This document shows positions 31,476 to 49,114 of a stretch of 64,000 nucleotides of DNA, one piece after another. The notes beneath the pieces are model-generated. The model had not been told where the DNA came from and ran no database searches. It saw only the letters and a list, made by a program, of their open reading frames with translations. The position numbers and the translations under genes were made by a program. Position 1 is the stretch's first letter. The number at the start of each line of letters is the position of its first letter. This DNA is from Cellvibrionales bacterium (GTDB taxonomy: Bacteria; Pseudomonadota; Gammaproteobacteria; Pseudomonadales; GM7GCV1): contig JACONM010000012.1 of the NCBI GenBank assembly GCA_014323765.1, positions 12,814 through 76,813 on the forward strand, given 5' to 3'.

Positions 31476-31534
31476 TTCATTTTGCCGGCACAGTGCGTTA
31501 AACTATGGCGATTCAACTCTTTGAGGATTTCGCT

Positions 31535-31927: not shown

Positions 31928-31932
31928 GAAAA

Positions 31933-33232: not shown

Positions 33233-34063
33233 ATGCGAAATATCATTGTATGCATGCGTGACAAAGCGGCATCTTGGTGGAGGCCTGGGTGGTTGGTGGT
33301 TTGTTATGTTGCGGTTTTACTGGTTGGAATCGCTATCGTTTCTTATTGGTGGGACGAAATCAGCAGCGATATTCGTGTATTGACTCAAATTGGGTTAGGG
33401 TTTTTTATTAGCCTGTTGGGGCTGTTTGGCTTGATCAATAGTACCATGCAGAGGATAAATACCGAAGCTCAGCTGCAAAATGCACGATATGATTCGAAGA
33501 AACGCGATATTCTGTCGGCGTGGGAAACATTGCGGGTACCGACTACGGCTGACGGTGGAAAAATTGCGGCGTTGGAAATGCTAAACGATACTCAGATTGG
33601 TAAAGAAGGCGTATGTGTTCCGGGTGAAAACCAGAAAAGCCTAGCAGGCATAGATCTTTCCGCTCAAACCATGGGTGCGCAGGATGAACAACAGCGCACT
33701 TATCTGGTAGGGGTGCGTTTACCGGGAGCAAATTTACAATTTGCCAATCTCAGTCGTGTCAATTTTACGGGCGCGGACTTCAGTGGCGTAAATCTTTCTG
33801 GTGCGGACCTTAGCAATGCAGATCTTTCGAATGCTAACCTCAGCAAGACATGTTTTTGTGTTTACGATACACAGAACATACAAGTCAAACAGTCCGATGA
33901 TAAAGGGTATCATAGTATTGCTAGACCCTTAGATATAGAGAACCAAATTGCTAATCTCAGTCACGTGAATCTATCGGATGCCAATGTTAGCGATGCATGT
34001 TTCTTGCTAGCAGCATCCGTCTTATTGGAGAATATAGACAGTGTAAAATTTTCAGGATCTTGA
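33233..34063 (+). CDS. Membrane-anchored pentapeptide-repeat protein (ends at an in-frame TGA; see findings)
   Basis: Two N-terminal TM helices, then GANLQFANLSRVNFTGADFSGVNLSGADLSNADLSNANLSKTCF and HVNLSDANVSDACF pentapeptide repeats. Confidence 0.75.
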   Translation: MRNIIVCMRDKAASWWRPGWLVVCYVAVLLVGIAIVSYWWDEISSDIRVLTQIGLGFFISLLGLFGLINSTMQRINTEAQLQNARYDSKKRDILSAWETLRVPTTADGGKIAALEMLNDTQIGKEGVCVPGENQKSLAGIDLSAQTMGAQDEQQRTYLVGVRLPGANLQFANLSRVNFTGADFSGVNLSGADLSNADLSNANLSKTCFCVYDTQNIQVKQSDDKGYHSIARPLDIENQIANLSHVNLSDANVSDACFLLAASVLLENIDSVKFSGS

Positions 34064-34251
34064 GCGTGGGAAGATCGCCCGCCGCTTGTGCATGGAGAGG
34101 TAAAAATAGCAAAGTACATATTCAATAAATCAAAAAAAGATCAACGAGATAAGCGGCCAAATCGAGATCCAGACGGCTTTTTTACCACTAGAGAGCTTGA
34201 GGATGCGATTCAAATTTTTAATCACAAGAAATTTCCGCGCTAGCCAAAAAT

Positions 34252-35256
34252 TTAGTTGCGCAAAAGGATGAAATGCTCGATTAGTCGCACCATTATTTCT
34301 TTTTGCTCAGGTGGGCTTGCGGCTACTAATAGGGCTAGGGCTACTAGGGTGTTGTCGTTTATTAGTTGCTCGACTGGTTTGGCTAGTAGCGGTTGGTTTA
34401 GGCGTAAATACCATAAGAATAGAAAGGAACCGATGCGCTTGTTGCCGTCTGTTAGCGAGTGATTTTTAATTACAAAGTACAGTAAATGGGCGGCGCGGCT
34501 GGCTATGTTGGGGTAAAAGACGCTATCACCGAAGCCCTGCTCAATGGTTTCTAATGCCGAAGCTAGGCCATCGCCGCGTAGGTTACCGAATAGCTTGGTG
34601 GCTTCGCCTTTCATAATCAATGTCTTTTTAAGCTCGGCAATGGCCTTTATTACCTCTTCCAGTTTTAATGCCCGCATATTGGCCTGTTTATCTGGTAGCG
34701 CGTTTAGGGTTTGCTCATCGTAGTTTTGTAATAGACTCCAGCTGCGGGCGTATTCGTCGATTATTGATAGCATGGCCGAGCCTTCGGCGTTTTCTAACGG
34801 CTGATCGCTCAGGCTGCGGGAAAGTTTGCGAACCTGCCGCACCGCTTCTTCGAGCTCGGCACTGTCGCTCTTGCGCAGGCTGGGTTCATTCAGACTGTGG
34901 CCCTCCGTTAGGTGCTGTTTTAAGGTGCGGGTGGCCCAGATGCGGAATTGTGTTGCGCGGGACGAGTTAACTCGGTAGCCCACCGAAATAATGGCATCAA
35001 GGTTGTAATGGCGTAATTTTCGCCTGACTTGGCGCCGGCCCTCGCGCCGAACTATTGAAAAATTCTCGGTAGTTGTCTTTTCGTCAAGCTCTTGATCGGC
35101 AAAGATATTTTTTAGATGGAGGCTGACGTTGTCAGTGCCAGTGGCGAATAGTTTGCCGATCTGCGATTGCGATAGCCAGACGTTGCCCTGCTCAAAGGTT
35201 ACCTCCATCTGGGTCTCGCCATCCTTGGATTCGTAAAGATAAATGCTTTGATTCAT
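34252..35256 (-). CDS. RhuM-family N-terminal domain fused to a Fic/Doc domain
   Basis: The N-terminus (VWLSQSQIGKLFATGTDNVSLHLKNIF...HYNLDAIISVGYRVNSSRATQFRIWATRTLKQHL) is RhuM-like. The C-terminus has the Fic/Doc core motif HSLTDGNKRIGSF (HxFx[D/E]GN[G/K]R). Confidence 0.8.
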   Translation of the reverse strand: MNQSIYLYESKDGETQMEVTFEQGNVWLSQSQIGKLFATGTDNVSLHLKNIFADQELDEKTTTENFSIVRREGRRQVRRKLRHYNLDAIISVGYRVNSSRATQFRIWATRTLKQHLTEGHSLNEPSLRKSDSAELEEAVRQVRKLSRSLSDQPLENAEGSAMLSIIDEYARSWSLLQNYDEQTLNALPDKQANMRALKLEEVIKAIAELKKTLIMKGEATKLFGNLRGDGLASALETIEQGFGDSVFYPNIASRAAHLLYFVIKNHSLTDGNKRIGSFLFLWYLRLNQPLLAKPVEQLINDNTLVALALLVAASPPEQKEIMVRLIEHFILLRN

Positions 35257-35260
35257 GATG

Positions 35261-36691
35261 CTATTTCACCATCTTTATCCAAGTACCCGGCTCCGGTTGG
35301 CCGCTGGGGTAGTAACCGTTAATTAGGCGTAGCTGCAATTCGGTGTGGCGGCCTAGAGTGCGGTTAGCGGCTAGATCCGCAAAAGTCTCGCCCGGTTGCA
35401 AGCGATGGTAATAAATGCGCTTAATTCGCTCTGGTGGGAAGTCCTGCTCCGTGGCGCGGCGGAAACTTTTAATTAGAGCCAGCACTGCCTTATCCTGCGG
35501 TTTGGCGAGCGGCACCGGGGCGGCGGCGGTGAAATAGTATTCGTAGGAACCGGATTTAATGACTGCTACCCGCTTGCGCCCCGCTGCCGTGTCTAGCTGC
35601 GCATAGACGGCATCCCCTTTGCGCTGCGGTTCCTCGTACAGGGGGCGAGGGCGGCGCAATTTATCGACCCCGTGGCGGGTCTTTAACATCTCCTCGGCAT
35701 CTAGGGCGAGGTTTTTAGGTTTGGCGACATCGAGTTCCACCCGTAAATTATCCGGGCCGCTCAACACAATCGTGGAACCTTGGGTGGTTTTGTTCCAAGT
35801 ATCCGGAAAGACAAAAGTAACACCAAGCACCTCGCTGGCGTAACGCTGATAGCCGGGCGGCGCAAGCATGCTCTCGCTGGGGCCGAACACCATATTATCC
35901 AGGTGCTGACGATAGACATCGCGCCCGCGGAAATCCTCGCCGGGCGGTAATTCGCCCGCCTGCTCGACCGCCTCCCGCAGGCGTTTGTCGTTTTTTGGGT
36001 GAGTAGCGAAAAGACCGTGATAAGTGACGGGGCGTTCGCCCGCTTCACGCGCTTGCATGCTGCTGAACTTCTCATGGTCTTTGAATACCGAGAGAACTTC
36101 GATGACAGCGGCGGGGTCGTAACCGGCGCGGTGTAGGGTGCGGGCACCGTGTTCATCGGCCTCCAACTCCATCTCGCGTCCGTAGCCGCTGACCCGTGCG
36201 GCGTTTTCCAGCTGAATGGCCCCGCCGACTCGGGAACTTACGGTCGCGCTGGCGACAAAGGCGGCGACATCGCCGAGCCGTTGTTGGCGGCGCCGGCGTT
36301 GCGCGTGGCGTTCGGTCACATGCGCGATTTCATGCGCGAGCACGGCGGCTAATTGCGCCTCGGAATTGAGATAGCTGAGCAAGCCGCGGGTGATGTAAAT
36401 GTAACCACCGGGCAGCGCGAAGGCATTGATGCCGGGGCTGTCGACGATAAAAAAGTGGTAATCGATTTCCGGCCAGTCGCCGTGCGCAGCCAGCTTTTGC
36501 CCCACCCGATCGATGTACGCATTGAGGGCTTCATCGCGATAGAAGTGGGTGGTTTTCAGCAGTTTCTCGTGTTCCTTGCGCCCGATTTTGACTTCGCTGT
36601 TTTCGCTTTGTGCGGGCAGGGCTAGGCCGAGCGCGGGCAACAGCCACACCCAAGCCCAGAGATGCGCACGCGATCTGCCGCCTCGCCGCAC
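35261..36691 (-). CDS. M48 family zinc metalloprotease with C-terminal LysM-like domain
   Basis: Signal peptide, HEIAHVTERH (HExxH), downstream EADEHG, and a C-terminal YYHRLQPGETFADLAANRTLGRHTELQLRLINGY (LysM-like). Confidence 0.8.
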   Translation of the reverse strand: MRRGGRSRAHLWAWVWLLPALGLALPAQSENSEVKIGRKEHEKLLKTTHFYRDEALNAYIDRVGQKLAAHGDWPEIDYHFFIVDSPGINAFALPGGYIYITRGLLSYLNSEAQLAAVLAHEIAHVTERHAQRRRRQQRLGDVAAFVASATVSSRVGGAIQLENAARVSGYGREMELEADEHGARTLHRAGYDPAAVIEVLSVFKDHEKFSSMQAREAGERPVTYHGLFATHPKNDKRLREAVEQAGELPPGEDFRGRDVYRQHLDNMVFGPSESMLAPPGYQRYASEVLGVTFVFPDTWNKTTQGSTIVLSGPDNLRVELDVAKPKNLALDAEEMLKTRHGVDKLRRPRPLYEEPQRKGDAVYAQLDTAAGRKRVAVIKSGSYEYYFTAAAPVPLAKPQDKAVLALIKSFRRATEQDFPPERIKRIYYHRLQPGETFADLAANRTLGRHTELQLRLINGYYPSGQPEPGTWIKMVK

Positions 36692-36694: not shown

Positions 36695-37372
36695 TCAGTC
36701 GCCCTCTGTTGCCGGTGCGAACAGGTCGGCCAGCTGCTTGGCTAGGCCGGTGCAGGCACTGCTTTGCACCCGCGCGATGAGCGGGACGGGCACCACCACG
36801 GCCGGAATGTAGGAGGTGCCCGTCGCCTCGGTGCCGATGCGCCCGACCTCGCGGGCGTGGGCGACATCCCAGATATTGGCTTCGTAGGTGCTCTCTTCTT
36901 CGCGCATGCCGAAACCGAAGCAACCGCCGAGGCCGATGCCGATGGAACAGGCCATGGAGCCGCGCTGGCGGGTGGTCTCAGTCGCGCCCTCGACCCACAC
37001 CAGATAGCGGACATTTTGCGCCTCCAGCCGCTCGCGCACCAGCGGTTCGTCCAGCGTTTGCAGCAGCTTCGGTAGGCTCAGGGGCGCGGTGCGCGGTTCA
37101 AACCAAGGGTACATCTGGTCGGTAAATTGCTCGGCGGGGATGACGCTGAGACCCGCAATATCCTGGCGCAAATTGTCGCCGATGCAGGCCAGCAACTCAT
37201 CTTCGGTCTCGTATTCCGGCGAGTGGTGGCGACCGAGGACCACCACGGCCTCGGAGTCGGGATCGATCTGCGCATCCTGCCAGCGGACATCGTCCACGGT
37301 GACGCTGGCGCAGCCGGCCACCAGCAGAGCGGGGCTGGCGAGGGCGATAAAAGCGAGCTTGCGCCAGCTCAC
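36695..37372 (-). CDS. Putative lipoprotein, unknown function
   Basis: LLVAGC lipobox after a short basic N-terminus. Start overlaps the upstream stop by 4 nt. Confidence 0.6.
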   Translation of the reverse strand: MSWRKLAFIALASPALLVAGCASVTVDDVRWQDAQIDPDSEAVVVLGRHHSPEYETEDELLACIGDNLRQDIAGLSVIPAEQFTDQMYPWFEPRTAPLSLPKLLQTLDEPLVRERLEAQNVRYLVWVEGATETTRQRGSMACSIGIGLGGCFGFGMREEESTYEANIWDVAHAREVGRIGTEATGTSYIPAVVVPVPLIARVQSSACTGLAKQLADLFAPATEGD

Positions 37373-38046
37373 GGGGCACCTCGGCGGCTGCGCAATTCCT
37401 GCTGGCGCAGCCAGGTTTGGATGGGCGGTTGGCGGCGCAGGCCGATGCTCAGCTGGGCACCAGTGTCGCGCAGGGCCATGGTGGCGGCGGCATTTAAGCC
37501 CGCCTGCGGCGATTGCAAAAAGGCACTCGGGGCCTTGCCGTAGCCGGTCAGTAACCAGTCGGCGATTAGCTCAGGTTCGGCGTCCGGTTCGGGCGGATCG
37601 GCGGTCACCTGCACCCGGTATTTCAGCCAAACTTCGTAGATTTCCGCCCGTGTCTCGCGGGGCATGGCGTATTGCAGGTCGACAATTTGCGGGTGGAGGT
37701 GCAGGTGCGGGGCAGATTTATCCGCGCTGGATAGCTGATCCGTCACCGAGCGGAACAGAGCCACCTGCGCCGCGCCCAGACTCAGGCTGATTTTGCGGCG
37801 GTCCTTGCGCTGCTCGGTAAAAACATAGCCGCTAAATTCGTCCGACAAATGCAAATGCGCCACCACCGGCAGGGCGGGCACCAGCGGCGCGGGGAACTGG
37901 GCATCGACCACGTAGTGGGTGCTGCAAGCGGGCAGTAGCAGTAGCCAAAGAATGCCGAGCAGCGCGGCGGCGAACAGGCGGCGGCGGGGATTGGGCGCGC
38001 GGGTGGGCATAAGGGTGGTCATAAGAGTCGGCGTAGCAGTCGGCAT
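37369..38046 (-). CDS. Putative lipoprotein, unknown function
   Basis: Hydrophobic signal ending LLLPAC. 225 aa; 8 nt downstream of the vWA gene. Confidence 0.55.
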   Translation of the reverse strand: MPTATPTLMTTLMPTRAPNPRRRLFAAALLGILWLLLLPACSTHYVVDAQFPAPLVPALPVVAHLHLSDEFSGYVFTEQRKDRRKISLSLGAAQVALFRSVTDQLSSADKSAPHLHLHPQIVDLQYAMPRETRAEIYEVWLKYRVQVTADPPEPDAEPELIADWLLTGYGKAPSAFLQSPQAGLNAAATMALRDTGAQLSIGLRRQPPIQTWLRQQELRSRRGAP

Positions 38047-38054: not shown

Positions 38055-39050
38055 TCAGCGAAAGTCGTTCAGGCCAACAAAGGTGCCGGCATTTTGGTGG
38101 GCCAGCTCGCGCATCAGGGCGGCGAAACGCTCGCCGGAATGGTGCCCGGCGTTGTCCGCAAACAGCACCGGGAAGCCGATGGCGTGGATCCGCACTCGCG
38201 GTTCGCCCTGGCCACGCTCGCTGTTGAGGGCGCGGACGGTGTCCAGCACCGGGGCTAGGCTGTTGCCAGTGTAATCGTCGCCGAAAACATAGAGGCTGAT
38301 TTTATGCTCCGGCGAGTAAAAGTTGCGGATGGCGGCGGTGATGCCTTCCACCGGGCTGCTGTTGCTGAATGGGTTCCAGACGCGCAGCTGCTCGACCAAG
38401 ATCTGCCGACGGCCCGGGGTGTCGGGAATCCACTGGCCACGGTGGCTGCTGAACATGTACTGCCCCATGTCGTTCATTATCTGCATCCCCTTGAGGTTGG
38501 GGTAGATGTCGAGGATATTGACCACCTCTTCCATCACCCGATTCCACGCATAGTGATACATGGAACCGGAAGTGTCGATGATAAAGATGACGTATTCCGA
38601 GTCCACCGGAATGCCGCCGATGACATTGTTGCGGCGTTGGTAGGCGGCACCGAGCAGGCGGCGCATCTCGGCGGACAGGCTTTGCAGGGCCAGCTTTAAT
38701 TCCGCCTGCCGCTCGGTCTCGCTGATATTGGCATTTTGCAGGCGGGCTAGGCGGTTGCCGCTTTGCTCGAGCTCGCCGTGTAGGATGGCCACGCGCTCCT
38801 GCTGCACGTCCAGCTGCTCGCGCTTGCTGCGTAGCTCGCGTTCCAGATAATCGATCTCGCCGCGCAATTCAAACAACTGTCGCTGCAATGCCTTGATGCT
38901 GCCACCCTGATTGGTGGTGGAGGCTTCCAATGGCTCCTCCGCGCCGCTTTGCACGATCACCAGTAGCAGCACGATGGCCCCGAACCCGCAGCAAATGATA
39001 TCCAGAAAGGCGATGCTGGTGTCCTGTCCGCGCTCGCGTTTGCGCCTCAT
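38055..39050 (-). CDS. Single-pass (Asp-in-TM) coiled-coil vWA domain protein, paralogue 1
   Basis: MRRKRERGQDTSIAFLDIICCGFGAIVLLLVIV is a basic stretch plus a TM with Asp17. It is followed by a heptad-rich segment of about 110 aa and a vWA domain with the MIDAS motif VIFIIDTSGSM. Confidence 0.8.
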   Translation of the reverse strand: MRRKRERGQDTSIAFLDIICCGFGAIVLLLVIVQSGAEEPLEASTTNQGGSIKALQRQLFELRGEIDYLERELRSKREQLDVQQERVAILHGELEQSGNRLARLQNANISETERQAELKLALQSLSAEMRRLLGAAYQRRNNVIGGIPVDSEYVIFIIDTSGSMYHYAWNRVMEEVVNILDIYPNLKGMQIMNDMGQYMFSSHRGQWIPDTPGRRQILVEQLRVWNPFSNSSPVEGITAAIRNFYSPEHKISLYVFGDDYTGNSLAPVLDTVRALNSERGQGEPRVRIHAIGFPVLFADNAGHHSGERFAALMRELAHQNAGTFVGLNDFR

Positions 39051-40105
39051 GGCCAGTCCTCAGACGGGGCGATGAAGCTGCCGCGAGTTTCCAGCGCGAT
39101 GCGCCAAAAAGCCGCCGCCGCCAAGGGGTCGCCTTCCATCGGCAGCAGCAGGGTGTTGACCGGAATTTCCTTCGGCAGGGCCCGCATCGCCTCGTTGAAA
39201 AACCCAATGCGCTGGCGGCCGGATACCGTGTTGCCCTTCGGTTTTTTTTCACCCTGAGTCGGCAGGCCATCGGTGATCAAAAAGACATTGTCCGGCAGCG
39301 GGCGCAGTTCGCGGATGACCTGCACCGCCGCCAGCAGGTTAGTGCCCCCCGCCGGCACCCGCTGGCGCAGGGCTTGCAATGCCTGCTCCAGATCCTCGGG
39401 CGCACTGGCCGCCAGCCATTGACCGGCCTGCGAGTCCGCCGCCGCCTGGGCAGTCTCGGCGAAAGTGTAGATCTGAAACCGGCTATCGGGCGAGAGGTTG
39501 GCCGCCAGCCAATCGACCATGGCGAGGGCCTGCTGCCACTTGGGTGCCGCCTGCTTGACCGCGTCCGGGCGGTTGCGGCGGCGGATAATGTTGACGATGG
39601 TTTTATCCAGCATGCTCGCCGAGCTATCCAGCAAAATCAGGGCCCGCCGCCCGCCCATGTGCAGTCCGGTCAGATACTGGCGCTCACCCTGGCCCAAAGT
39701 GGCGCGCACCCGGTTGCCGCCTCCCCGTTTTTGCAGGGCTTGTTTTTGCTGCTCTAACTGGGCGATCTGCCGTTCAAGCTGTTCGATCTGCTCGTTTTTT
39801 TGCGGTCCCAACGCGGTGATCTGCCCGCGCAATGCGTCAATTTGTTCCTGAATCTGCCGCGCCAGCCCCTGCGCACGGGCCAGGGCCGCATCGGCCGCGG
39901 ACAGACTATTGCGAATGCGCGCCAAATTTTCTTGGCCGATGCGGATTTCCGTGGCCAGCAGGCGGGTCTCACTGCTCGCCGCGCTGCCGGTGTGTACCTC
40001 GCTGCTGTGCTTGATCAGCAAAAACAACAACACCGCCGCGCCCAAACCGCAGGACATGATGTCCAGGAAGGACAGGTTGAAGGTGGATGCCTGCCGCCGG
40101 CGCAT
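39047..40105 (-). CDS. Single-pass (Asp-in-TM) coiled-coil vWA domain protein, paralogue 2
   Basis: Track ORF trimmed to ATG 40105 (2 nt after the upstream stop). MRRRQASTFNLSFLDIMSCGLGAAVLLFLLI, a coiled coil (QIEQLERQIAQLEQQKQALQ), and a vWA domain with ALILLDSSASM and FLITDGLPTQG. Confidence 0.8.
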   Translation of the reverse strand: MRRRQASTFNLSFLDIMSCGLGAAVLLFLLIKHSSEVHTGSAASSETRLLATEIRIGQENLARIRNSLSAADAALARAQGLARQIQEQIDALRGQITALGPQKNEQIEQLERQIAQLEQQKQALQKRGGGNRVRATLGQGERQYLTGLHMGGRRALILLDSSASMLDKTIVNIIRRRNRPDAVKQAAPKWQQALAMVDWLAANLSPDSRFQIYTFAETAQAAADSQAGQWLAASAPEDLEQALQALRQRVPAGGTNLLAAVQVIRELRPLPDNVFLITDGLPTQGEKKPKGNTVSGRQRIGFFNEAMRALPKEIPVNTLLLPMEGDPLAAAAFWRIALETRGSFIAPSEDWP

Positions 40106-40107
40106 CG

Positions 40108-41382
40108 TTATTCCATCAGCCGCACGGCCAGCAGGGCGTGGCCGGCGACCTCCAGCCGGTCGCCCGCTACTAGCGGCTTGGCGCGATCCGCCGGCTGCCC
40201 ATTGACCCGAAAATCGGGGCCGGTCACACAAATGCCGTCCGCGGCGAATTGAATAGCGGCGAATTCGGCGGCTAGATCCTGCGCTTTGCTGAAATTTGCC
40301 GCGGCGTAGACTAGTCCCCGGTGAACCAGCGCATTGGCCAGCGGCGGGGACTCGGCGGCGGGTGCCGTGGGGGGCGGAGTGCTGTTTGCCGGCGGGCCGA
40401 GAGTCGTCTGGCTGATGTAGGCTGTGCCGGCACCGGGCTCCAGATCGGCGAGCAGGGCGGCAGCACCCGCCGCGGCGGCAGCACCATCGATAATTTGATA
40501 AGTGCTTGGCTGGGCTTTTTTTTGCACTCCGGGCAGTGGGGCGAAGGCGGGAGCCAGCACAGTGTAACGGGCGGAAACCTTGCCGAGCAGATCATTCACA
40601 AAGCCGTCCACCGTCGCCTCGATATCGGCCTGATTCATGTCGAGCGAATGGCTGGCCGCGCCGCTGTCCACCGTAAAAGCCGCCAGCGACTGCCCATCGA
40701 GCACCTTGCGCACCTGATCGAACAGCTGCTGCTCGGTGCCGCCGCTGTGCAGGGGGTCAAAGCGCGAGCTCTGAATAAACCGCTCGCTCAGCCCTTGCAA
40801 CAGGCGGTCGACTAGGCGCAAAAAGCCGTGACTTAGCAATACCTCATGCGACCGCAACGCAAGCTGCCCCTGCCCCTGTTCATGGGGGTCATGGGCGTAT
40901 TCATAGCGTGAAATAACCGTTTGATGTAGCTGCAGATCGACATGGCATAGCGATTCACCCGGCGGCTGCGCGGCCATCTGCGCTAGGCCCAGATTGAGGA
41001 TGGCTTGAACCTCGATATCGAGAGAGCGGCAGATACCGGCCAGCAGTTCCAGCTGTTCGTGGCTCAGATGGGAGGGCACACAAAAAACGAACGGTGCGCC
41101 GCCCGCCGCCGCCTTAATGTCTGCTAATTGGTGCCAGACCAGGTCCGCGCTGTGGCGCACTCCGGCCTTTTTTATGGGAATGGGGCGGGTGTCGAGTTCC
41201 TGCCAGAAGCGGCTGTGGACCCGCCCCGGCTGCTGGCGCAGGGCTTGCAGGGCTGCGCTACCGAGCACCGGCGGTTGGCCCGCCAGCAGCAGTGCCATAC
41301 CCGGCTCGGCGTAGACGGTCTCGCCGCCGCGGGTGGCGCGGATGCAGAGGTCGCAAAGCTCGACAAGGACGGCATCTGGCAT
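40108..41382 (-). CDS. Cytoplasmic protein: degenerate Hsp70/actin-like fold with FHA-like C-terminus
   Basis: 424 aa, no TM. Segment order resembles DnaK nucleotide-binding-domain landmarks (VELCDLCIRAT; FVFCVPSHLSHEQLELLAGICRSLDIEVQAILNLGLAQMAA; CHVDLQLHQTVIS), but the glycine-rich phosphate loops are lost. The tail ICVTGPDFRVNGQPADRAKPLVAGDRLEVAGHALLAV is FHA-like. Confidence 0.5.
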   Translation of the reverse strand: MPDAVLVELCDLCIRATRGGETVYAEPGMALLLAGQPPVLGSAALQALRQQPGRVHSRFWQELDTRPIPIKKAGVRHSADLVWHQLADIKAAAGGAPFVFCVPSHLSHEQLELLAGICRSLDIEVQAILNLGLAQMAAQPPGESLCHVDLQLHQTVISRYEYAHDPHEQGQGQLALRSHEVLLSHGFLRLVDRLLQGLSERFIQSSRFDPLHSGGTEQQLFDQVRKVLDGQSLAAFTVDSGAASHSLDMNQADIEATVDGFVNDLLGKVSARYTVLAPAFAPLPGVQKKAQPSTYQIIDGAAAAAGAAALLADLEPGAGTAYISQTTLGPPANSTPPPTAPAAESPPLANALVHRGLVYAAANFSKAQDLAAEFAAIQFAADGICVTGPDFRVNGQPADRAKPLVAGDRLEVAGHALLAVRLME

Positions 41383-41398: not shown

Positions 41399-42193
41399 CT
41401 AGATTTGCACATGCCGCAGCAAATTGCGGTCGCAGTAGCGTTGCGCATCCAGCACCAAGCGTTCCTGATGCAGGGTCAGCTGGTGCGACAGAAACATGAC
41501 GATAATGCTAATCAGCAGCGCAATAAAAGTGGAATTGAACGCCACGCCCAAGCTGGCGGTCACCCCGGCGATGTTGCCGGCCACCGCCTCGTGCGCGTTG
41601 GCCAGGGCCGCGCCTATGCCGCGCACGGTGCCGATAAAACCGATCGATGGAATCGCCCAGGCGATGTAGCGAATCATGGAAAGCTCGGTGTCGAGCCGCT
41701 GCGATTCCGCCTCGCACAGGTCGCGCACGGCACTGGCAATATCCTGCACACTGCCGGCGGTGCCGAGGCGTTGCAGGGCGGCGGTGATAGCGCGGGGCAG
41801 CAAATAATCCTGCTGTTCGGCGGGCAGGCTTTCCAGATTGCGCCCCAGTGCCCGCGAGTCCTCCGGCAACACCCGCGAGCCGGCGGGCACTTCAATTAGC
41901 GGCAGGCGCAACAGCCGCTTTTCCGCACTGACTCGCACCGCCTTGTAGCCCATGATCGCCAGTGCCCAAAACGCCAGCACAAAGCAGGCTTGCTGCTCGT
42001 AATCTTTCAGTACCACCCAAAGCGAGCGTTCCGCCCCGGTGGCAGTGCCCGCCTGCTGCGCCAATTCCGCCGCCAACAATAGGGCCTCGGCATTAGGCCG
42101 CACTAGGCCGATGTAAAACAGATGCACCAGAATAAAGGCGGCGAGCAGGGCCCCTAGCTGGAAGAGGAATTCGTTGGAGAGGGATTTGGGCAT
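41399..42193 (-). CDS. MotA/TolQ/ExbB proton-channel family protein
   Basis: 264 aa, 4 predicted TM helices. IAWAIPSIGFIGTVRGIGAAL...GVAFNSTFIALLISIIVMFL matches the conserved TM3/TM4 core of ExbB/TolQ/MotA. Confidence 0.85.
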   Translation of the reverse strand: MPKSLSNEFLFQLGALLAAFILVHLFYIGLVRPNAEALLLAAELAQQAGTATGAERSLWVVLKDYEQQACFVLAFWALAIMGYKAVRVSAEKRLLRLPLIEVPAGSRVLPEDSRALGRNLESLPAEQQDYLLPRAITAALQRLGTAGSVQDIASAVRDLCEAESQRLDTELSMIRYIAWAIPSIGFIGTVRGIGAALANAHEAVAGNIAGVTASLGVAFNSTFIALLISIIVMFLSHQLTLHQERLVLDAQRYCDRNLLRHVQI

Positions 42194-42270: not shown

Positions 42271-42798
42271 TTATGGAAACCACTTGAGGTCGCTTTTGGA
42301 GCAGCGGTAAAGCTCGCTTGGTTTTACTGCATCGCCCTCCTTGGACATCGAAAAATCGTAGTATGCCGCATCACCACTTGCATCTAACGTAAGGGAGTAT
42401 TTAAAACCGTCTTCACCTATCCCCCAATTCCAACGTTTCTTCAAGCCCTCCATAGCGACAAATGCCTCGAAGGTCTTATCAAAAACCTTGACATGCCCCA
42501 GATCAAGAAGCCCCGATTCACCCGGATCAAGAAGCCCCGATTCGCCGAGCCAGAGTATATTTTCGCCGTTATATGCAAAACGGTCTTTGCATGCCCAGAT
42601 CGATCCATAGGAGGCTTCTTCACCTGAGGAAGTATTAAGATCTTCGCCTACAGTAGCATCGGTTTCTTCGTTCGGAGCAGTGCTGTCTTCTTCTCCCAAA
42701 GCGACATCATTTTCTCCGCTTGAGCCAGTATAAGTCGCAAGCTCCGCACAGGATGACAGCGCAAGGGAAAGGATGGCGAGTAGGGCGATTTTTTGCAT
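42271..42798 (-). CDS. Lipoprotein, unknown function (lower GC than its neighbours)
   Basis: MQKIALLAILSLALSSC is a lipobox. Acidic/Ser-rich linker. Contains an 8-aa tandem duplication, GESGLLDP/GESGLLDL. Confidence 0.65.
   Translation of the reverse strand: MQKIALLAILSLALSSCAELATYTGSSGENDVALGEEDSTAPNEETDATVGEDLNTSSGEEASYGSIWACKDRFAYNGENILWLGESGLLDPGESGLLDLGHVKVFDKTFEAFVAMEGLKKRWNWGIGEDGFKYSLTLDASGDAAYYDFSMSKEGDAVKPSELYRCSKSDLKWFP
42501..42548. repeat. 24-nt perfect-frame tandem duplication inside the lipoprotein gene
   Basis: gatcaagaagccccgattcacccg / gatcaagaagccccgattcgccga: two adjacent copies with 2 mismatches. Confidence 0.85.
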
Positions 42799-43149: not shown

Positions 43150-45240
43150 TCACTTTGCATAGCGGGCGACGCGGAAGCCGAGGTCCTGCCGCCCCTTGGA
43201 ATCGTAATCGCGATAGGCGAGGCGCAGCTGCGGCAGGTGGCCGCGGGCCCAGCTGGCCCCGCGGATGACGTGGAACTCGCCCTCGGCTGGGCCCAGCGGG
43301 TCCGCCACCGGATCCGCGCCGCTGTAGGGCACCGGCTGATACCAGTCGTGCATCCATTCCATCACATTGCCGCCCAAATCGTAGAGGCCGCGGGCGTTGG
43401 GCGCAAAGCTGGCTACGGCGGCGGCGGCGGGGTGGCCATCGTTGATATCGGCGACCACAAAGCGGATTTTGGCGGCGATGCTTTGGTCGGCGAAGTTGGC
43501 GACCGGGCCGGGCACGGCATCGGCATCGCCCCAGATGTAGCGTTGCTGCGGGCCGGCCGGTAGGGTGCTGGCGGCGAAAGTCCATTCCGCCTCGGTGGGC
43601 AGGCGGTAGCCGGTGGACTCGGGGTTGCTGCCGGACACCGCCCCTTTTTGCGTTTGATAGAAGGGCGGTAGGCCAGCTTGTTTGCTGAGCCAGTTGCAAA
43701 AGAGCGCGGCTTGTTGCCAGCTTAGGCGCACGGCAGGCTGGTCGGGGCCGTCTAGGCTGTGGGATTCGAAGTGCCCGGAGCTGTGCGTGGCGGCGAACTG
43801 GCGGTATTGGCGGTTGGTGGTCTCGGTTGCGCTCAGGTAAAAGGGGCGATTCAGCTGCGCCTGCCATTGTGCTTCGTTGGCGCGGCGGTTGGGTTCGCGG
43901 CGGCTGGAACCCATGGCGACCAGGCCGGCGGCGCGAAATAGCCGCATGGTTGCGCCGACCTTGTTTTGATAGCGGGCGGGGATGCGGGCCCAGGCGGCGG
44001 CTTCATCGGTCAGCAGGCGCACTTGCAGCAGTTGCGCCGAGCCGGTTAGCGGCAGAAAATCCAGCGTTTTGGCGGCATGCCCCGGCGCGGTGACGCGGAT
44101 CTGCTGGCGCACGGCGGGCAGTTGCAGCGATTTGACGGCAGTGCCCTGGTCCGCGCCATTGACGTAGAGTCGAGCGTTGGCCGGGTGGAGGCTGACCCGC
44201 ACATCGACTAGGTTCGGTTTTAGCGTATAGGCGAGCGGCTTGGCATTGCCATCGCCATCGCCGGCGGCGGGCGCGGTGATCCGGTGGCGTTGGCTTTGGT
44301 AGCCGGCTTTGTGGAGCTGCAATTCGTGTTCTTGGCCCGGGGTTAAGGGTAGCTGGAGGGGGGTTTGCCCCAGATAGTTGCCGTTTAGGGTAACCGCCAC
44401 GTCCGCCGGGCGGGTGCTGAGCGGGACCTGAATATCTTGCGGTTTTAGGCGGAGGGTGTCAGGCCATTCTAGGGTGGTGCCGGCACGGATTTCGATGGGT
44501 TGCTGCCATGATTTGTAACCGGGGGCGGTGATCTGCAGGCGGGGGGTGCCTTGCTCGATGCGATAGGTGCCGCGGGTTGGATCTTTGGTTAGGGGGTGAT
44601 CATCGGCGGTAAGCTGCGCCGTCGCTGGCTCGACTTCGATGGCCAGATAGCCCCAGTTGGGGGCCAGTTCGATGGGCAATTCTTCGGTGAGGCCGCGCCC
44701 GCGCACCTCGACTTCGAAAGTGGCGGGGCGGTAAAGCGGGGCATCGGCATGCAGGCGGTAGGAGCCGGCCGGCAGGTCGACGAAGGTGAATTGGTTTGCT
44801 GCCGCGCCCGGCTCGCTGCCCTCCAATGCCACCTGCCCCTCGATGCCGGCCGACGCAAAATAGGCGCGAATCTGGCCGGGGAGCGGCTCCAGTGCGATGT
44901 GCAAATTGGCTGGGCTATCGGCGGTTACTTCGATGCGCTGCTGTTGCGGGTGGTACCCCGCTGCGCTGATGTCCAGCCGATAACTGCCGCGCAATAATAG
45001 AAAGCGACCGCCGCCGATCGGCAGGGCCGCCCCCGACAGGCGCACTTGCGGGTCGCTGGCATTGCTGGCGACCACGATGGCGCGGGCGTTGAAAATAAAC
45101 AGCAGTGCGGCGGCGAGCACCAGCGCAGCCAATAGAGCCAAGCCGTGCAACGGGTGCCAGCGAAAGCGGGGCGATGCCGCGCCCCCCGCCGGTGCATTAA
45201 AGCGCGCGGGGACGATGCGGTCTGGCGGTGGTTGCGGCAT
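43150..45240 (-). CDS. Membrane-anchored protein with about 5 PEGA-like repeats and a C-terminal formylglycine-generating-enzyme (SUMF1/FGE-sulfatase) domain
   Basis: N-terminal TM (LHGLALLAALVLAAALLFIF). Five repeats of about 75 aa of the PEGA type (e.g. RPADVAVTLNGNYLGQTPLQLPLTPGQEHELQLHKAGY). C-terminal FGE-type motifs YRLPTEAEWTFAA, GGNVMEWMHDWY, VIRGASWA. Confidence 0.8.
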   Translation of the reverse strand: MPQPPPDRIVPARFNAPAGGAASPRFRWHPLHGLALLAALVLAAALLFIFNARAIVVASNASDPQVRLSGAALPIGGGRFLLLRGSYRLDISAAGYHPQQQRIEVTADSPANLHIALEPLPGQIRAYFASAGIEGQVALEGSEPGAAANQFTFVDLPAGSYRLHADAPLYRPATFEVEVRGRGLTEELPIELAPNWGYLAIEVEPATAQLTADDHPLTKDPTRGTYRIEQGTPRLQITAPGYKSWQQPIEIRAGTTLEWPDTLRLKPQDIQVPLSTRPADVAVTLNGNYLGQTPLQLPLTPGQEHELQLHKAGYQSQRHRITAPAAGDGDGNAKPLAYTLKPNLVDVRVSLHPANARLYVNGADQGTAVKSLQLPAVRQQIRVTAPGHAAKTLDFLPLTGSAQLLQVRLLTDEAAAWARIPARYQNKVGATMRLFRAAGLVAMGSSRREPNRRANEAQWQAQLNRPFYLSATETTNRQYRQFAATHSSGHFESHSLDGPDQPAVRLSWQQAALFCNWLSKQAGLPPFYQTQKGAVSGSNPESTGYRLPTEAEWTFAASTLPAGPQQRYIWGDADAVPGPVANFADQSIAAKIRFVVADINDGHPAAAAVASFAPNARGLYDLGGNVMEWMHDWYQPVPYSGADPVADPLGPAEGEFHVIRGASWARGHLPQLRLAYRDYDSKGRQDLGFRVARYAK

Positions 45241-45275: not shown

Positions 45276-46796
45276 TTAAATGGGGGTGTCGCAGACGACT
45301 AGCAGATCGATTTCCGGCTTTGAGCCATCGATGAGCAGTTCGATGCGCTGATCGCGGAAGCCGGCGCAGCGGCCGATGACCACGTAGCGACCGGGGTACA
45401 GGTTGAGGGCTTGCGCGGTGAGGGTACCCAGTTTGCCGACTCGGTAGATTTCGATCTCGGTTTGCTGGTCCGAGCGCAGCCTAACCACCACCGGGGTGCG
45501 CGCCCGCCGCAGGGTTTTCGCCAATTCTTCAATCTGCGCTGCCAACCGCGGGCCGCGCTCGCGCACCGCCTGCGCATCGGTCAGCACTTGGTTGGCGGCG
45601 CGCCAGGCGGGCTCGGCGTTCAGAGCCAGCGGTTCGGCTAGGATGGCTTGGATGCGATTATCCAGATTCAGCCGCGCTTCCGAGCGCAGTTGACCGAGAC
45701 GAGCGGCGGACAGGCTTGTATCGGCGGCCAGCAGGGCGGCGTAGGCATCGAGCGCGGCCTGCCAATTTTCATCTTGTTCCAGCCGCTGCGCACGGGTCAG
45801 CTTGCGCTCACGCTCGCCGCCGAGCTTTGCCGCCTCCACCTGCCGCAATGCCTCGGTCGCCGCCAGATCGTCCGGTTTCAGCCGGGCGGCGGCGGTGAAG
45901 GCGCGGGTGGATTCACGGTAGTTGCCGGCACTCAAAGCGGCAAAACCCGCCGACATTTGGGCGGTGAAATCGCGCTCGGTGATCGCCTGTTCGACCGCGG
46001 CCAGCCGGGCGGCGAGCGGCGGATAGGCGGCATCGAGGGTTTGCGCCTCCAGCAGGGCTTGGCGGGATTCTGGCAGGGTTTGCGGATCTGCTTGCAGGGC
46101 GGCACTGCGTTCCATCAGGGCGAGCACTTGGGGGCGCACTTCGGCGCGGGCTAGGGCGGTGTCGATGGCGGCATCGGCAGGAGCCAAGCGGTTGGCCAGC
46201 AACAACAGTTCGGTCGCTTGCTGCGGCTGATTTTGCGCCAGCCGCGCCAAGCCCTCGTCGTAATAACGTTGCGCCGTGGCGGGGATTTGCGCTTCCAGCT
46301 GCTGGGCCAATTCTAGGGCTTGGCGGTAAGCGGCGATGGATTCGGCAAACTGGCGTTCCTGGTAGGCGCGGTCGCCGGTGCTGGCCAATGTCGCCAGCTG
46401 CGCGATCTGTTCGGCGGCCCAGATGTCCGCCTGCGCTTTTTCCAGCCGCTGCTGGCTGGCCAGCAATTCGGCGAGCACCTGCTGGGCATCGCGCCTTGCT
46501 TTGAGTAGCTGGGAATCGGCCCAGGGGGATTCGCTCGGCGGGCGCAGGTTTGGACGCGGCGGTTCAGGTTGCGCACCTTCATGTTGCGTGACAGGTTGCG
46601 CGACTGAAGGGACGGGCGCGGGGCGATCTGGCTGCCAGAAAACCAGAATCAACGCCAGCAGAGCCAGGATGAGCAGCACCCCCAGCCCCCATTTTTTGGC
46701 ATTCGGCGGGCGTTGCGCAGTGGATGCGGTCGATCTGACCGCCCCCTGCGGGCTGAATTCGGCAGGCTCGATCTGCTGCCTGTGGCCGTCCTGCAT
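45276..46796 (-). CDS. Membrane-anchored TPR/helical-repeat protein with C-terminal PEGA-like domain
   Basis: TM (WGLGVLLILALLALILVFW), a long Ala/Leu/Gln-rich helical repeat region, and a C-terminal VVRLRSDQQTEIEIYRVGKLGT...LYPGRYVVIGRCAGFRDQRIELLI. Confidence 0.65.
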   Translation of the reverse strand: MQDGHRQQIEPAEFSPQGAVRSTASTAQRPPNAKKWGLGVLLILALLALILVFWQPDRPAPVPSVAQPVTQHEGAQPEPPRPNLRPPSESPWADSQLLKARRDAQQVLAELLASQQRLEKAQADIWAAEQIAQLATLASTGDRAYQERQFAESIAAYRQALELAQQLEAQIPATAQRYYDEGLARLAQNQPQQATELLLLANRLAPADAAIDTALARAEVRPQVLALMERSAALQADPQTLPESRQALLEAQTLDAAYPPLAARLAAVEQAITERDFTAQMSAGFAALSAGNYRESTRAFTAAARLKPDDLAATEALRQVEAAKLGGERERKLTRAQRLEQDENWQAALDAYAALLAADTSLSAARLGQLRSEARLNLDNRIQAILAEPLALNAEPAWRAANQVLTDAQAVRERGPRLAAQIEELAKTLRRARTPVVVRLRSDQQTEIEIYRVGKLGTLTAQALNLYPGRYVVIGRCAGFRDQRIELLIDGSKPEIDLLVVCDTPI

Positions 46797-46805: not shown

Positions 46806-48041
46806 TTAGCGGCTGGCGGGCGGCAGGTTTGCGGTGTCTGGCCGCGGATAGCCGGTCTCGGCGTAGTACATATCTGCCAGCAGCACCCGCCATTGGGCGT
46901 ACTGATCGCGCACGGTGCCGGTCAGGGTGATGGTGCGATCTTGCAACTCCACCACGCTGGGGGCCAGTTCGGCCTCCAGCGACTCGCCCAACTCGCTCAA
47001 AGTGGCGATGTGCAGCTTGGCCTCCTCGCGCTGTTCAAAGCTGACGGAGATCTGCTCGCTGCCCGCCAGAATGCCGACCGTGCCCGCCGCCCGATAGTAT
47101 TCATTGCCCTCGACGGCCGCCGCGGTGCCGGCAATAATCGCCAGCCAGCCGATCAGTCGCCGCCGCCGCGCACTGTTTTCTAGGTCTTCGATAAGTTGAG
47201 TTTCCCGATAACTCTGCGCCCGCCACTCGCGGTAGGGGTCGTGCATATTGGCGGCGAAGCCTTGGTAATAATCCTGCAACAGGTCGACGAAAAGCTGGTC
47301 TCGCGACTGAATGGCCTGCACCCGCGCCAGCAGTGGGTCGCCAGCGGCAGGCAGGCGCACCAGCTGCGCTAGGCCCTCCTCATCGCGCTCGAGGTACTGA
47401 TCAAACGCCGCGGGCGAGAAGGATTGCGCAAACCGCATGGCACTGACCGCCCGCAGGGCTTCGCGCTGTGCCAATTCGGTGGCCTGCAGCTGGCGCAACA
47501 GGTCGTTGGCGATCTGGTTGTACATACTGCGAAACGGCTCGCGCTCGCGTTGGGTGAGGTCGTAGGCATATTTGCTGACCTGCTGCTGGTAATTTTGCTC
47601 CAGCCAGACACGCCCGGTCTGGTCCACTGCCCGCACCTGCAACGCGAGGGTTTCGCCGTCCGATTGCAGGATTTTGCCAGCCAGTTGTAAATCCATAATG
47701 ACCTGGTCATCCGGGGCAATGCGCACCGCCCCCCAAGCGTTGCTGGCTTGCAGCGATTCTTTCAGCCGCTGCGCCACCCAGATGGATTCGGCACTGCGCA
47801 CGGCGGCGAAGGTGGTCTCATCGTCTTCCGGTATGCCCTCCAGATCAGGGTCGAAAATCTCGATGGCGACATCCAGCAGGTACTGCTCCGGTGTGTCCAC
47901 CGCCAGCCGCTCGGCGGGCTGCTCATCGACGCTACGCACATCGTAACTGGCGCAACCACCGAGCAGCAGCAGGGCGCAAACTAGGGGGCGGAATGGCTTA
48001 GTGGGCATATTGGTGAAGGGCCTAGCAGGCAGATCGAACAT
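46806..48041 (-). CDS. Putative lipoprotein, unknown function
   Basis: LLLLGGCAS lipobox. 411 aa with a hydrophobic patch near the C-terminal third (LIGWLAIIAGTAAAV). 2 nt downstream of the preceding gene. Confidence 0.6.
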   Translation of the reverse strand: MFDLPARPFTNMPTKPFRPLVCALLLLGGCASYDVRSVDEQPAERLAVDTPEQYLLDVAIEIFDPDLEGIPEDDETTFAAVRSAESIWVAQRLKESLQASNAWGAVRIAPDDQVIMDLQLAGKILQSDGETLALQVRAVDQTGRVWLEQNYQQQVSKYAYDLTQREREPFRSMYNQIANDLLRQLQATELAQREALRAVSAMRFAQSFSPAAFDQYLERDEEGLAQLVRLPAAGDPLLARVQAIQSRDQLFVDLLQDYYQGFAANMHDPYREWRAQSYRETQLIEDLENSARRRRLIGWLAIIAGTAAAVEGNEYYRAAGTVGILAGSEQISVSFEQREEAKLHIATLSELGESLEAELAPSVVELQDRTITLTGTVRDQYAQWRVLLADMYYAETGYPRPDTANLPPASR

Positions 48042-48043: not shown

Positions 48044-49114
48044 CTATTTCTCGCCTTTGTAGCGTTTGTATTCTTCCCAGAGCAGGGCGCGTTGGGCCGG
48101 ATCCGGCTCGTTCAAAGCCGCCTCGCGAATCTGGCGGGCGACCACATCATCGTCCGGCGAAGGCGGCGGAATATCGGCGGACTCTAACCCAGCGGGGGCC
48201 GCTGCACCGTCTGCATTACCCCGATTAGATGGGGCACCATCAGTGGTGGCAGAAGAACCGGCACCGGTGCTGGACGACGGCAGGGCAGGGGGGCGACCCG
48301 CCGGCCCATCGTAGACGGCAAACTCGCCCACCCCAGCGACTTTGGCGATGCCCGCACCGCCCGCCTCCCCCGCACCGTCAGATTTAACCCGCACATTTTC
48401 CTGCTCGCGGAGAATTTGCGCATCAAAGGTGCCCAATGCCTCATCGAGGGTTCTTTCTAATTCTTCTAAGTCGACTTCCGCCCCCGTCCCTTGCCCGCCA
48501 TCGCCCCGCCCCGCCCCGGAACTCTGAGCCTGTCCCTCACCGCTCTGATCGGCACCATCGCCACGCCCGGCGGGAGACTCCCAAACCGGCAGATCTGCAC
48601 CATTTCCCACCGTCGCGGATTTCTGCCCGGCACCGCCCGCCGGCGCACCGCTGCCCGATGTGCCATTTGCTACGCCCCCGGCAGTCTCCCAAACGGGGCC
48701 ATCCGTCGCCGCTCCGCTGGTGGCGGCACCGTTACCGGAACTGCCCGCACCCGCTCTACCGCCAGCCGGCCCACCGGGCATGCCCGCCCCAGATCGTCCA
48801 ATGCCCACGCCCCCGACCTTCGGACCGCCACTCGCCCGGTCTACGCCGCCGCTACTTCCGGCTCCCGCATTACCGCGATTCGCACCGCCCGATTTGCCAT
48901 CGGTTCCCACGCCCACTCGACCGCCGGGAGTCGGCAGACCCGCACCGGGCAGGTTTGCCCCCGGAAGAGTCGCGCCAGGCAACCCTGCGCCCACCCCACC
49001 GCCCGCACCGGGGATGGACGAGCCGCTCTTCGCGCTAGTCTTCACACAGCCCGCCTGCAACATAGCCAGCGCGCAGACCACGCCGAAGAAAGCGGTGAAT
49101 TTGAACCTAGGCAC
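48044..49114 (-). CDS. Gly-rich low-complexity probable lipoprotein
   Basis: Signal ending AMLQAGC, about 200 aa of G/A/S/P-rich sequence (GAGLPGATLPGANLPGAGLP...), then an ordered acidic C-terminus (DDDVVARQIREAALNEPDPAQRALLWEEYKRYK). Confidence 0.6.
   Translation of the reverse strand: MPRFKFTAFFGVVCALAMLQAGCVKTSAKSGSSIPGAGGGVGAGLPGATLPGANLPGAGLPTPGGRVGVGTDGKSGGANRGNAGAGSSGGVDRASGGPKVGGVGIGRSGAGMPGGPAGGRAGAGSSGNGAATSGAATDGPVWETAGGVANGTSGSGAPAGGAGQKSATVGNGADLPVWESPAGRGDGADQSGEGQAQSSGAGRGDGGQGTGAEVDLEELERTLDEALGTFDAQILREQENVRVKSDGAGEAGGAGIAKVAGVGEFAVYDGPAGRPPALPSSSTGAGSSATTDGAPSNRGNADGAAAPAGLESADIPPPSPDDDVVARQIREAALNEPDPAQRALLWEEYKRYKGEK

Follow-up and report, generated by a model that had tools for sequence, protein, structure and literature searches.

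The 64,000-nucleotide stretch of a Cellvibrionales genome analyzed here (contig JACONM010000012.1; hereafter, the window) encodes two adjacent proteins, vWA-A and vWA-B, each of which combines a basic N-terminus, a single membrane helix with an Asp near its cytoplasmic end, a coiled-coil stalk and a head of the von Willebrand factor A (vWA) type. Together, these proteins probably constitute the central dimer, i.e., the B subunit or axle, of an ion-driven motor of the 5:2 type, with a pentamer of a MotA/ExbB-family protein as its A subunit. An earlier reading of the DNA (hereafter, the original prediction) had proposed the same, and the analysis supports it by the conservation of the Asp and of the metal ion-dependent adhesion site (MIDAS) in the heads, the preservation of the pore threonines in the MotA/ExbB-family protein, the absence of a canonical B subunit from the cluster, and the pairing of the two genes. 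The functional assignment of the helices rests mainly on context and conservation. The motor-axle reading is already known, since it was predicted, matching the original prediction point for point, in a computational study of the "TPH-vWA" family of transmembrane (TM)-tethered vWA proteins (PMC12204202, Mol Biol Evol 2025). The main addition made here is the conserved eleven-gene context of the pair, which provides experimenters with a parts list and with candidate MIDAS ligands.

The vWA-A and vWA-B genes and their neighbors

The genes of the pair and of its presumed partners, all on the reverse strand, are as follows.

41399..42193 (-), MotA/ExbB-family membrane protein, 264 amino acids (aa), presumed pentameric proton channel (PF01618, E = 6.8e-15)
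40108..41382 (-), cytoplasmic protein of 424 aa resembling the nucleotide-binding domain (NBD) of Hsp70, with a C-terminal FHA-like domain
39047..40105 (-), vWA-A, 352 aa, with basic N-terminus, trans-pore-helix candidate, heptad stalk and vWA head
40013-40069 (-), trans-pore-helix candidate of vWA-A, residues 13-31; D15 is GAC at 40063-40061
About residues 45-135 (-), heptad stalk of vWA-A
39614-39628 (-), MIDAS motif LLDSSASM of vWA-A with D160/S162/S164, plus T255 and D279
38055..39050 (-), vWA-B, paralogue of vWA-A, 331 aa, with trans-pore-helix candidate, long helix and divergent vWA head
38952-39008 (-), trans-pore-helix candidate of vWA-B, residues 15-33; D17 is GAT at 39002-39000
38625-38906 (-), single long helix of vWA-B, residues 49-142, in the AlphaFold2 (AF2) model
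38562-38576 (-), MIDAS motif IIDTSGSM of vWA-B with D159/S161/S163, plus D258

On re-examination, the gene coordinates, the D15 and D17 codons and the gene order were all as originally described. The two vWA genes indeed overlap by four nucleotides, in the sequence ATGA at 39050-39047, in which the stop codon of vWA-A overlaps the start codon of vWA-B. The gene context was found as predicted as well, with a MotA_ExbB gene (PF01618) two genes upstream of the pair and, between them, a gene for a protein with the fold of an Hsp70 NBD, as revealed by AF2 modeling and Foldseek.

The N-termini of vWA-A and vWA-B (MRRRQASTFNLSFLDIMSCGLGAAVLLFLLI and MRRKRERGQDTSIAFLDIICCGFGAIVLLLVIV, respectively) contain a run of Arg and Lys residues followed by a single hydrophobic helix (FLDIMSCGLGAAVLLFLLI in vWA-A and FLDIICCGFGAIVLLLVIV in vWA-B). 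These basic clusters favor an N-in topology, by which the vWA heads would be located in the periplasm.

Conservation of the membrane helix

Whether the Asp in the membrane helix is invariant among homologues had been proposed as a check on its functional relevance. It was found at this position in 228 of 230 scorable relatives of vWA-A and in all 120 relatives of vWA-B, and in vWA-A its conservation extends into Verrucomicrobia. The sequences that could not be scored were either fragments or products of gene calls with the Met inside MSCGFGA as their start, by which the Asp is cut off. The Asp is followed by a CG(F/L)GA stretch, which presents a face of small residues and varies hardly or not at all among hundreds of homologues. 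In an alignment of 27 vWA-A homologues, the invariant residues were F13, L14, D15, M17, S18, C19, G20, G22 and A23 in the helix, together with D160, S162, S164, T255 and D279 in the head.

For many vWA-A orthologues, the public gene call takes the Met inside MSCG(F/L)GA as its start and has lost the basic N-terminus and the Asp (P0009, P0012, P0014, P0018, P0040, P0069, P0075, P0304, P0320 and others). Thus, part of the family hides its conserved Asp in automated annotation.

The original prediction had also recognized in these helices the pattern that characterizes the N-termini of TolR and ExbD. By eye, S-F-L-D-I-M in the vWA proteins corresponds to P-L-L-D-V-L in TolR and to P-F-I-D-V-M in ExbD, and the local motif they have in common can be written as (S/T)-x-(F/L)-(L/I)-D-(I/V)-(M/L). 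In an hhalign comparison with seven ExbD/TolR N-termini, the alignment placed Asp on Asp over seven columns, with a score of 13.6 and an HH probability of 3.8%; this score was reached by one of 200 column-permuted controls. The alignment suggests that the resemblance is real at the level of the motif and in the correct register, and this part of the claim stands; the homology that it might imply cannot be shown (see below).

Stalks, heads and paralogy

Downstream of the membrane helix, each of the vWA proteins contains a heptad helix of ~95 residues. The heptad-like nature of these segments, which had been noticed earlier, is borne out by an a/d periodicity of ~4 standard deviations over shuffled sequence in both stalks and by the AF2 model of vWA-B, in which the stalk is one continuous helix comprising residues 49-142.

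The head of vWA-A is recognized by the Pfam family VWA_2 (33.8 bits; cut-off 27). By sequence, vWA-B remains below the Pfam threshold (PF00092, 17.1 vs. 23.8 bits), and a search of the PDB sequences with a profile of the vWA-B family yielded nothing but coiled-coil noise and a faint match to integrin. Its fold is, therefore, shown by modeling: the head is predicted by AF2 with a predicted local distance difference test (pLDDT) score of 77-92, and Foldseek matches it, with E-values between 5e-7 and 1e-4, to solved vWA domains, i.e., those of ITIH1, TFIIH p44, Rpn10, vWF-A3, integrin I and ANTXR. In their alignment, vWA-A and vWA-B are true paralogues (BLASTP, E = 4e-8; hhalign probability 99.2%, E = 1.3e-19).

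Both heads have retained an intact DxSxS motif, as had been described, and its residues are invariant in both paralogues. In the vWA-B family, D159, S161, S163 and D258 are the invariant MIDAS residues, and the position of the MIDAS Thr is probably taken by the invariant S231/S232.

The C-terminal tails of both proteins are invariant and acidic and end in D-W-P in vWA-A (39047-39058) and in N-D-x-R, where x is Phe or Tyr, in vWA-B (38055-38069). One may speculate that the Asp in the tail of either paralogue could serve as a MIDAS ligand, in head-to-head pairing or in auto-inhibition.

Pairing, distribution and the absence of a canonical B subunit

At least 588 confirmed pattern matches were obtained among the GTDB species-representative genomes, and 80 loci were kept for comparison. 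The family is large: clustering at 90% identity leaves at least 4,596 clusters for vWA-A and at least 7,999 for vWA-B; an exhaustive profile search yielded 495 clusters at 50% identity with E ≤ 1e-30. Both paralogues were present in all 80 loci. The stop codon of vWA-A and the start codon of vWA-B overlap by four nucleotides in 41 of the 69 loci that were scored and by a single nucleotide in another 12, together 53 of 69. This overlap suggests that translation of the two genes is usually coupled, and it fits equimolar synthesis of the two proteins and their assembly into a 1:1 heterodimer, which is in line with the suggestion in the original prediction that the two paralogues form a heterodimeric unit.

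The synteny of the MotA-like gene, the Hsp70-like gene where present, vWA-A and vWA-B is preserved in 75-80 of the 80 gammaproteobacterial loci and also in the distant loci L084, L086 and L088. Many of the carriers are marine Gammaproteobacteria (e.g., Cellvibrionales, Microbulbifer, Colwellia and Pseudoalteromonas), and others are Verrucomicrobia. The loci of Opitutae/Puniceicoccaceae (Verrucomicrobia) have kept the MotA-like gene and both vWA genes, with the motif SF(L/M)DCICCGFGAV in both vWA paralogues; at the position of the Hsp70-like gene they contain a gene for a protein of 499 aa, which is not recognizable as a homologue by phmmer.

When E. coli TolR, ExbD and MotB were used as queries, no relative was found inside the cluster, either in the window or in any of the 80 loci, and for MotB there was none anywhere in the window or in these loci. 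Outside the cluster, a TolR/ExbD-like open reading frame (ORF) is located at a distance of 8-10 kb in five loci, and none is present within 10 kb in the other 75. In L019, L061 and L074, TolQ/ExbB-, TolR- and TolA-like ORFs are found together 8-10 kb downstream of the cluster (~18000-21000), whilst in L027 and L029 a TolR/ExbD-like ORF occurs without the other two and on the opposite strand. Since the remaining 75 loci have no such ORF, this neighborhood is probably coincidental.

This distribution over Gammaproteobacteria and Opitutae/Puniceicoccaceae agrees with the published one, in which the vWA family occurs in Proteobacteria and Verrucomicrobia (PMC12204202). According to the same study, the genes show a tight co-occurrence with tolQ homologues and no tolR or exbD; the proteins have a trans-pore helix like that of TolR/ExbD, in which an Asp is conserved, lack the SHLS/His motif of the TonB/TolA type, and are found "predominantly in heterologous pairs"; and AlphaFold3 models put the two Asp residues inside the ring of conserved threonines of the pentamer (PMC12204202). 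The family in the window is very likely the same as the Idiomarina family of that study, and the pair looks like an ordinary member of the TPH-vWA family with no difference in kind. We found no further paper on this family in the literature, nor is a function, phenotype or structure recorded for it there. The text of PMC12204202 makes no mention of the Hsp70-NBD/FHA gene, the FGE-fold/PEGA protein, the lipoproteins or the M48 protease, all of which are described below. A connection with the conflict systems of the MoxR-vWA, GTPase/Hsp70 or FGS type (eLife 2020;9:e52696) was considered and rejected, because the core components of these systems are absent here; that paper never mentions MotA or TolQ.

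The presumed MotA/ExbB-family partner

The MotA-like protein is well above the Pfam cut-off for PF01618 (55.4 vs. 22.9 bits) and far under the equivalog cut-offs for TolQ and ExbB (TIGR02796, TIGR02797 and TIGR02805). By these scores, it is an orthologue of neither TolQ nor ExbB. In an alignment of 75 sequences (the window protein and 74 orthologues) to which E. coli TolQ and ExbB were added, two pore threonines are invariant, T189 (41627-41629) and T222 (41528-41530), and they occupy the columns of T145 and T178 of TolQ and of T148 and T181 of ExbB. Its layout is MotA-like rather than ExbB-like: of its four hydrophobic segments, the second and the third are separated by a cytoplasmic domain of ~80 residues.

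The Hsp70-like protein

The protein encoded between the MotA-like protein and vWA-A has no match in Pfam, the HSP70 family included. Its AF2 model (pLDDT 90.8) is matched by Foldseek to the NBDs of DnaK, Ssz1 and mortalin, with E-values down to 5.7e-16. The C-terminal FHA-like β-sandwich was recognized by profile matches to FHA domains at E-values of ~1e-3, and Pfam detects an FHA domain in nine of 33 homologues. As no TM segment or lipobox was detected in the protein, nor a signal peptide, it is presumably cytoplasmic.

By eye, the segment that seems to match the DLGGGT phosphate loop of DnaK reads DLQLHQ, and the FHA-like domain of the window protein lacks the Ser and His that are kept in the family consensus (vsrahc). 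The protein appears degenerate and may be unable to bind either ATP or phospho-threonine. Divergence within the family is fast, with only 33 matches and no more than 41% identity outside the source genome. The gene is absent from L037, L051 and L086, as judged from ORF or gene lists, and it has no BLAST match in L052, where its absence is based on this missing match and on gene spacing only. Since its gene is missing from these four loci, the protein is considered an accessory component. The clusters without the gene are otherwise intact, and in them the MotA-like gene runs nearly straight into vWA-A (L037, 8700-10000; L051, 8800-10000; L086, 9063-10001).

A proposed 5:2 motor with a heterodimeric axle

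In the proposed mechanism, the helices of vWA-A and vWA-B would lie side by side in the pore of the MotA-like pentamer, and D15 and D17 would fulfill the proton-transfer role of D25 in ExbD, D23 in TolR and D32 in MotB. The two Asp residues would shuttle protons past the ring of threonines, and this proton flow would make the pentamer turn with respect to the dimer. The coiled-coil stalk, which would measure ~14 nm if straight, would carry both vWA heads into the periplasm, where their MIDAS metal sites may grip an acidic residue of a partner protein. The likeliest partners would be co-conserved products of the cluster, i.e., the FGE-fold/PEGA protein, the TPR protein, or the lipoproteins X, Y or that of 411 aa. 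Force or torque derived from the proton-motive force (PMF) would thus be passed on to a machine in the envelope. The Hsp70-NBD/FHA-like protein would be a frequent, dispensable accessory, probably located at the cytoplasmic face of the pentamer.

Several observations weigh against this interpretation. Demonstrable homology of the helix to ExbD/TolR was ruled out: a profile of the N-terminal 39 residues retrieved no ExbD, TolR or MotB from all PDB sequences at E ≤ 10, a Pfam scan of the N-terminal 60 aa gave no match at E ≤ 10, and the hhalign comparison described above gave a low HH probability (3.8% over seven columns), which leaves a match at the level of the motif only. Nor did the full-length vWA proteins match ExbD/TolR in Pfam (PF02472) or NCBIfam. 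In the monomer AF2 model of vWA-B, the TM helix is of low confidence (pLDDT 39-56). In the MotA-like protein, the position of E176 of ExbB is taken by an invariant Val (V217), and P187 of TolQ is not conserved in the family; because of these two differences, the channel would deviate in detail from those of ExbB and TolQ. Furthermore, the support is computational throughout, and the MIDAS ligands proposed are candidates only.

If the interpretation is correct, the proteins would represent a further class of 5:2 ion-driven motors beside MotAB, ExbBD, TolQR, GldLM, AglRQS and ZorAB, and the first in which the axle is an obligate heterodimer and the working end is formed by a metal-dependent adhesion domain.

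Alternative explanations

The same 5:2 architecture could operate with its roles reversed. The vWA heads would then do no more than hold the dimer in place on a fixed structure in the periplasm, in the way that MotB is held on peptidoglycan by its OmpA-like domain, whilst the rotating pentamer would drive the Hsp70-NBD/FHA-like protein as its cytoplasmic client, as MotA acts on FliG. Both the MotA-like layout of the channel protein, with its cytoplasmic domain of ~80 residues, and the presence of a gene for a cytoplasmic protein between the motor and vWA genes in most clusters agree with such an arrangement. However, a protein that evolves fast and is missing from the intact clusters L037, L051, L086 and L052 cannot be the essential output, and a periplasmic location or a lipoprotein nature is predicted for nine of the eleven conserved products of the cluster, an indication that the output lies in the envelope. 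We, therefore, regard the reversal of roles as unlikely. We judge it equally improbable that the TM helices of the vWA proteins are plain anchors, or are located outside the motor like those of TolA and TonB, with the MotA-like protein being paired with an ExbD or TolR encoded elsewhere. In that case, the vWA proteins would be comparable to the Bat proteins and act as scaffolds or in adhesion in the periplasm, and the Asp would have another purpose. Membrane-anchored vWA proteins without motors do exist, BatA and BatB being examples, the helix shows no statistically demonstrable similarity to ExbD/TolR, and a separate TolR/ExbD-like ORF is present 8-10 kb from the cluster in five loci, in three of them accompanied by TolQ/ExbB- and TolA-like ORFs. 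Yet, 75 of the 80 loci have no TolR or ExbD within 10 kb, and an Asp that is kept in a single-pass helix in ~350 sequences from two phyla and is followed by an invariant face of small residues would be unexpected in a passive anchor. Moreover, the proteins have no SHLS/His motif of the TonB/TolA type, the helix of vWA-B being devoid of His, and MoxR, DUF58 and BatA_N were not found in the cluster, i.e., in Pfam and NCBIfam scans of ten of its proteins and in Pfam scans of the products of the other two genes.

A function in anti-phage defense of the Zorya type, in which the MotA-like channel would sense perturbation of the envelope, is very improbable. The PADLOC defense models gave nothing significant, with only a weak match of ZorA2 to the MotA-like protein (E = 0.0027); ZorB, ZorC, ZorD and the other PADLOC families remained unmatched, and no nuclease or other effector domain was detected in Pfam and NCBIfam scans. 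In addition, the GC content of the cluster equals that of its surroundings, and its eleven-gene order is kept in most full-length loci among the 80, unlike what is seen in a mobile defense island.

The conserved eleven-gene envelope cluster

BLAST searches of the window proteins against six-frame ORFs of the 80 loci revealed a conserved co-directional order of eleven genes, which is complete in most of the full-length loci. They encode, in this order, a Gly-rich lipoprotein, a lipoprotein of 411 aa, a TPR protein, a protein with PEGA repeats and the sulfatase-type fold of formylglycine-generating enzyme (FGE), the MotA-like protein, the Hsp70-NBD/FHA-like protein, vWA-A, vWA-B, lipoproteins X and Y, and a secreted M48 protease. 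In the window, neighboring genes of the cluster overlap or are no more than 17 nucleotides apart, save for the gap between the FGE-fold and MotA-like genes, which holds the gene for a lipoprotein of 175 aa. Besides the genes listed above, the cluster contains the following.

48044..49114 (-), Gly-rich probable lipoprotein, 356 aa, first gene of the conserved order, present in 57 of the 80 loci
46806..48041 (-), lipoprotein of 411 aa with lipobox LLGGC, conserved, without a family in Pfam or NCBIfam
45276..46796 (-), TPR protein, inner-membrane-anchored, 506 aa, conserved cluster member
43150..45240 (-), PEGA/FGE-fold protein, inner-membrane-anchored and periplasmic, 696 aa (FGE-sulfatase, 1.2e-38; PEGA, 1.1e-27)
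42271..42798 (-), small lipoprotein, 175 aa, its gene flanked by those for the FGE-fold and MotA-like proteins, no match in the 80 loci
37369..38046 (-), probable lipoprotein X, 225 aa, directly after vWA-B, no known family, present in 77 of the 80 loci
36695..37372 (-), conserved lipoprotein Y, 225 aa, lipobox VAGC, present in 71 of the 80 loci, four-nucleotide overlap with the gene for lipoprotein X
35261..36691 (-), secreted M48 metalloprotease, 476 aa, with HEIAH motif (PF01435, E = 2.3e-35), last conserved gene, present in 53 of the 80 loci, many of which end before its position

The hydrophobic N-termini of the 356-aa protein and of lipoprotein X end in LQAGC and LLPAC, respectively, both outside the strict lipobox pattern; the former protein also has a conserved C-terminal segment. 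At its C-terminus, the 411-aa lipoprotein contains a conserved Gly/Ala-rich hydrophobic stretch (e.g., IAGTAAAVEG...AGTVGILAG), which by eye is like the glycine-zipper segments of some outer-membrane lipoproteins. The 696-aa protein consists of an N-terminal TM segment, β-sandwich repeats that are PEGA/carboxypeptidase-regulatory-like, and a C-terminal FGE-sulfatase fold, which in an alignment to 6MUJ lacks the two catalytic cysteines of FGE. Its best NCBIfam match is to GldK/PorK, with 96 bits against a cut-off of 350, and PorK is also among its PDB matches (E = 6.5e-15). The gene for the 175-aa lipoprotein looks like a lineage-specific insertion into the operon rather than a conserved part of it. 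Lipoprotein Y has four invariant Cys residues and the motifs YPWFEPRTAP, GGGGCFGFG and GTSYMPA, and it has no relative in Pfam, in NCBIfam or, by profile search, in the PDB; it is an uncharacterized family tied to the vWA/MotA-like system. A LysM domain suspected by eye at the C-terminus of the M48 protease was rejected, as Pfam gave no support for it.

In the distant loci L086 and L088, too, the genes for the 411-aa lipoprotein, the TPR protein and the PEGA/FGE-fold protein are located upstream of the motor genes; a core of the cluster is shared with Verrucomicrobia. A scan of the cluster for promoters and terminators gave nothing above the expectation from shuffled sequence.

It is possible, though we propose this with reservation, that the vWA pair and the MotA-like protein are the engine of an undescribed PMF-driven trans-envelope machine that is encoded by the eleven-gene cluster. 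Its layout would be parallel to that of PorK-L-M-N of the type IX secretion system (T9SS), with an FGE-fold protein that is catalytically dead, a motor of the 5:2 type and a dimer that spans the periplasm. The axle would be heterodimeric, its integrin-like MIDAS heads would be force-bearing grips on a lipoprotein or scaffold partner, and the cytoplasmic Hsp70-NBD/FHA-like module would regulate or localize the motor. As the published account covers the motor pair only, the surrounding machine and its output would be new.

Comparison with known systems

With ExbB-ExbD and with TolQ-TolR, this system shares an A subunit of the MotA_ExbB family with both pore threonines and a B-like N-in single-pass protein with an Asp near the cytoplasmic end of its helix. 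However, the vWA proteins have a coiled-coil stalk and a vWA head instead of the periplasmic domain of ExbD/TolR, the B unit would be heterodimeric, made up of paralogues, instead of homodimeric, E176 is replaced by Val, and the window cluster encodes no TonB or TolA partner. The likeness to MotA-MotB and PomA-PomB consists of the Asp-bearing single-pass B subunit, the MotA_ExbB-family A subunit and its layout with four hydrophobic segments; the vWA proteins differ from MotB and PomB in having neither an OmpA-like peptidoglycan-binding domain nor a plug, and there are no flagellar genes nearby. Pfam and NCBIfam scans of the cluster proteins gave no match to the OmpA/MotB families.

The order of an FGE-fold protein, a motor A subunit and a single-pass, periplasm-spanning, dimer-forming protein is reminiscent of GldL-GldM and PorL-PorM. 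Unlike GldK/PorK, however, the FGE-fold protein of the window is TM-anchored and contains PEGA repeats instead of being a lipoprotein, and it remains at 96 bits where 350 are required. The families GldL, GldM and GldN found no match in the cluster in Pfam and NCBIfam. GldM relies on an Arg, paired with a Glu in GldL, and not on an Asp. The resemblance to the T9SS/gliding motor is, thus, a lead by analogy of layout rather than an indication of membership. With BatA and BatB, the system has in common the adjacent paralogous, inner-membrane-anchored vWA proteins and the presence of TPR proteins in the operon; the Bat proteins are not known to have a linked MotA/ExbB gene, an Asp-bearing helix or a coiled-coil stalk.

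The flank of the cluster

The end of the cluster borders on a block of lower GC content at ~26000-36000 (0.48-0.54, compared with ~0.63 in its surroundings). The block contains a gene at 33233-34063 (+) for a membrane protein, the C-terminal half of which is by eye pentapeptide-repeat-like, and a gene at 34252-35256 (-), the product of which is a RhuM/Fic-domain protein (Pfam, 1.5e-23 and 7e-9). Elsewhere, the cluster has neither the Fic gene nor the block as a conserved neighbor, and the block is probably an acquired island.

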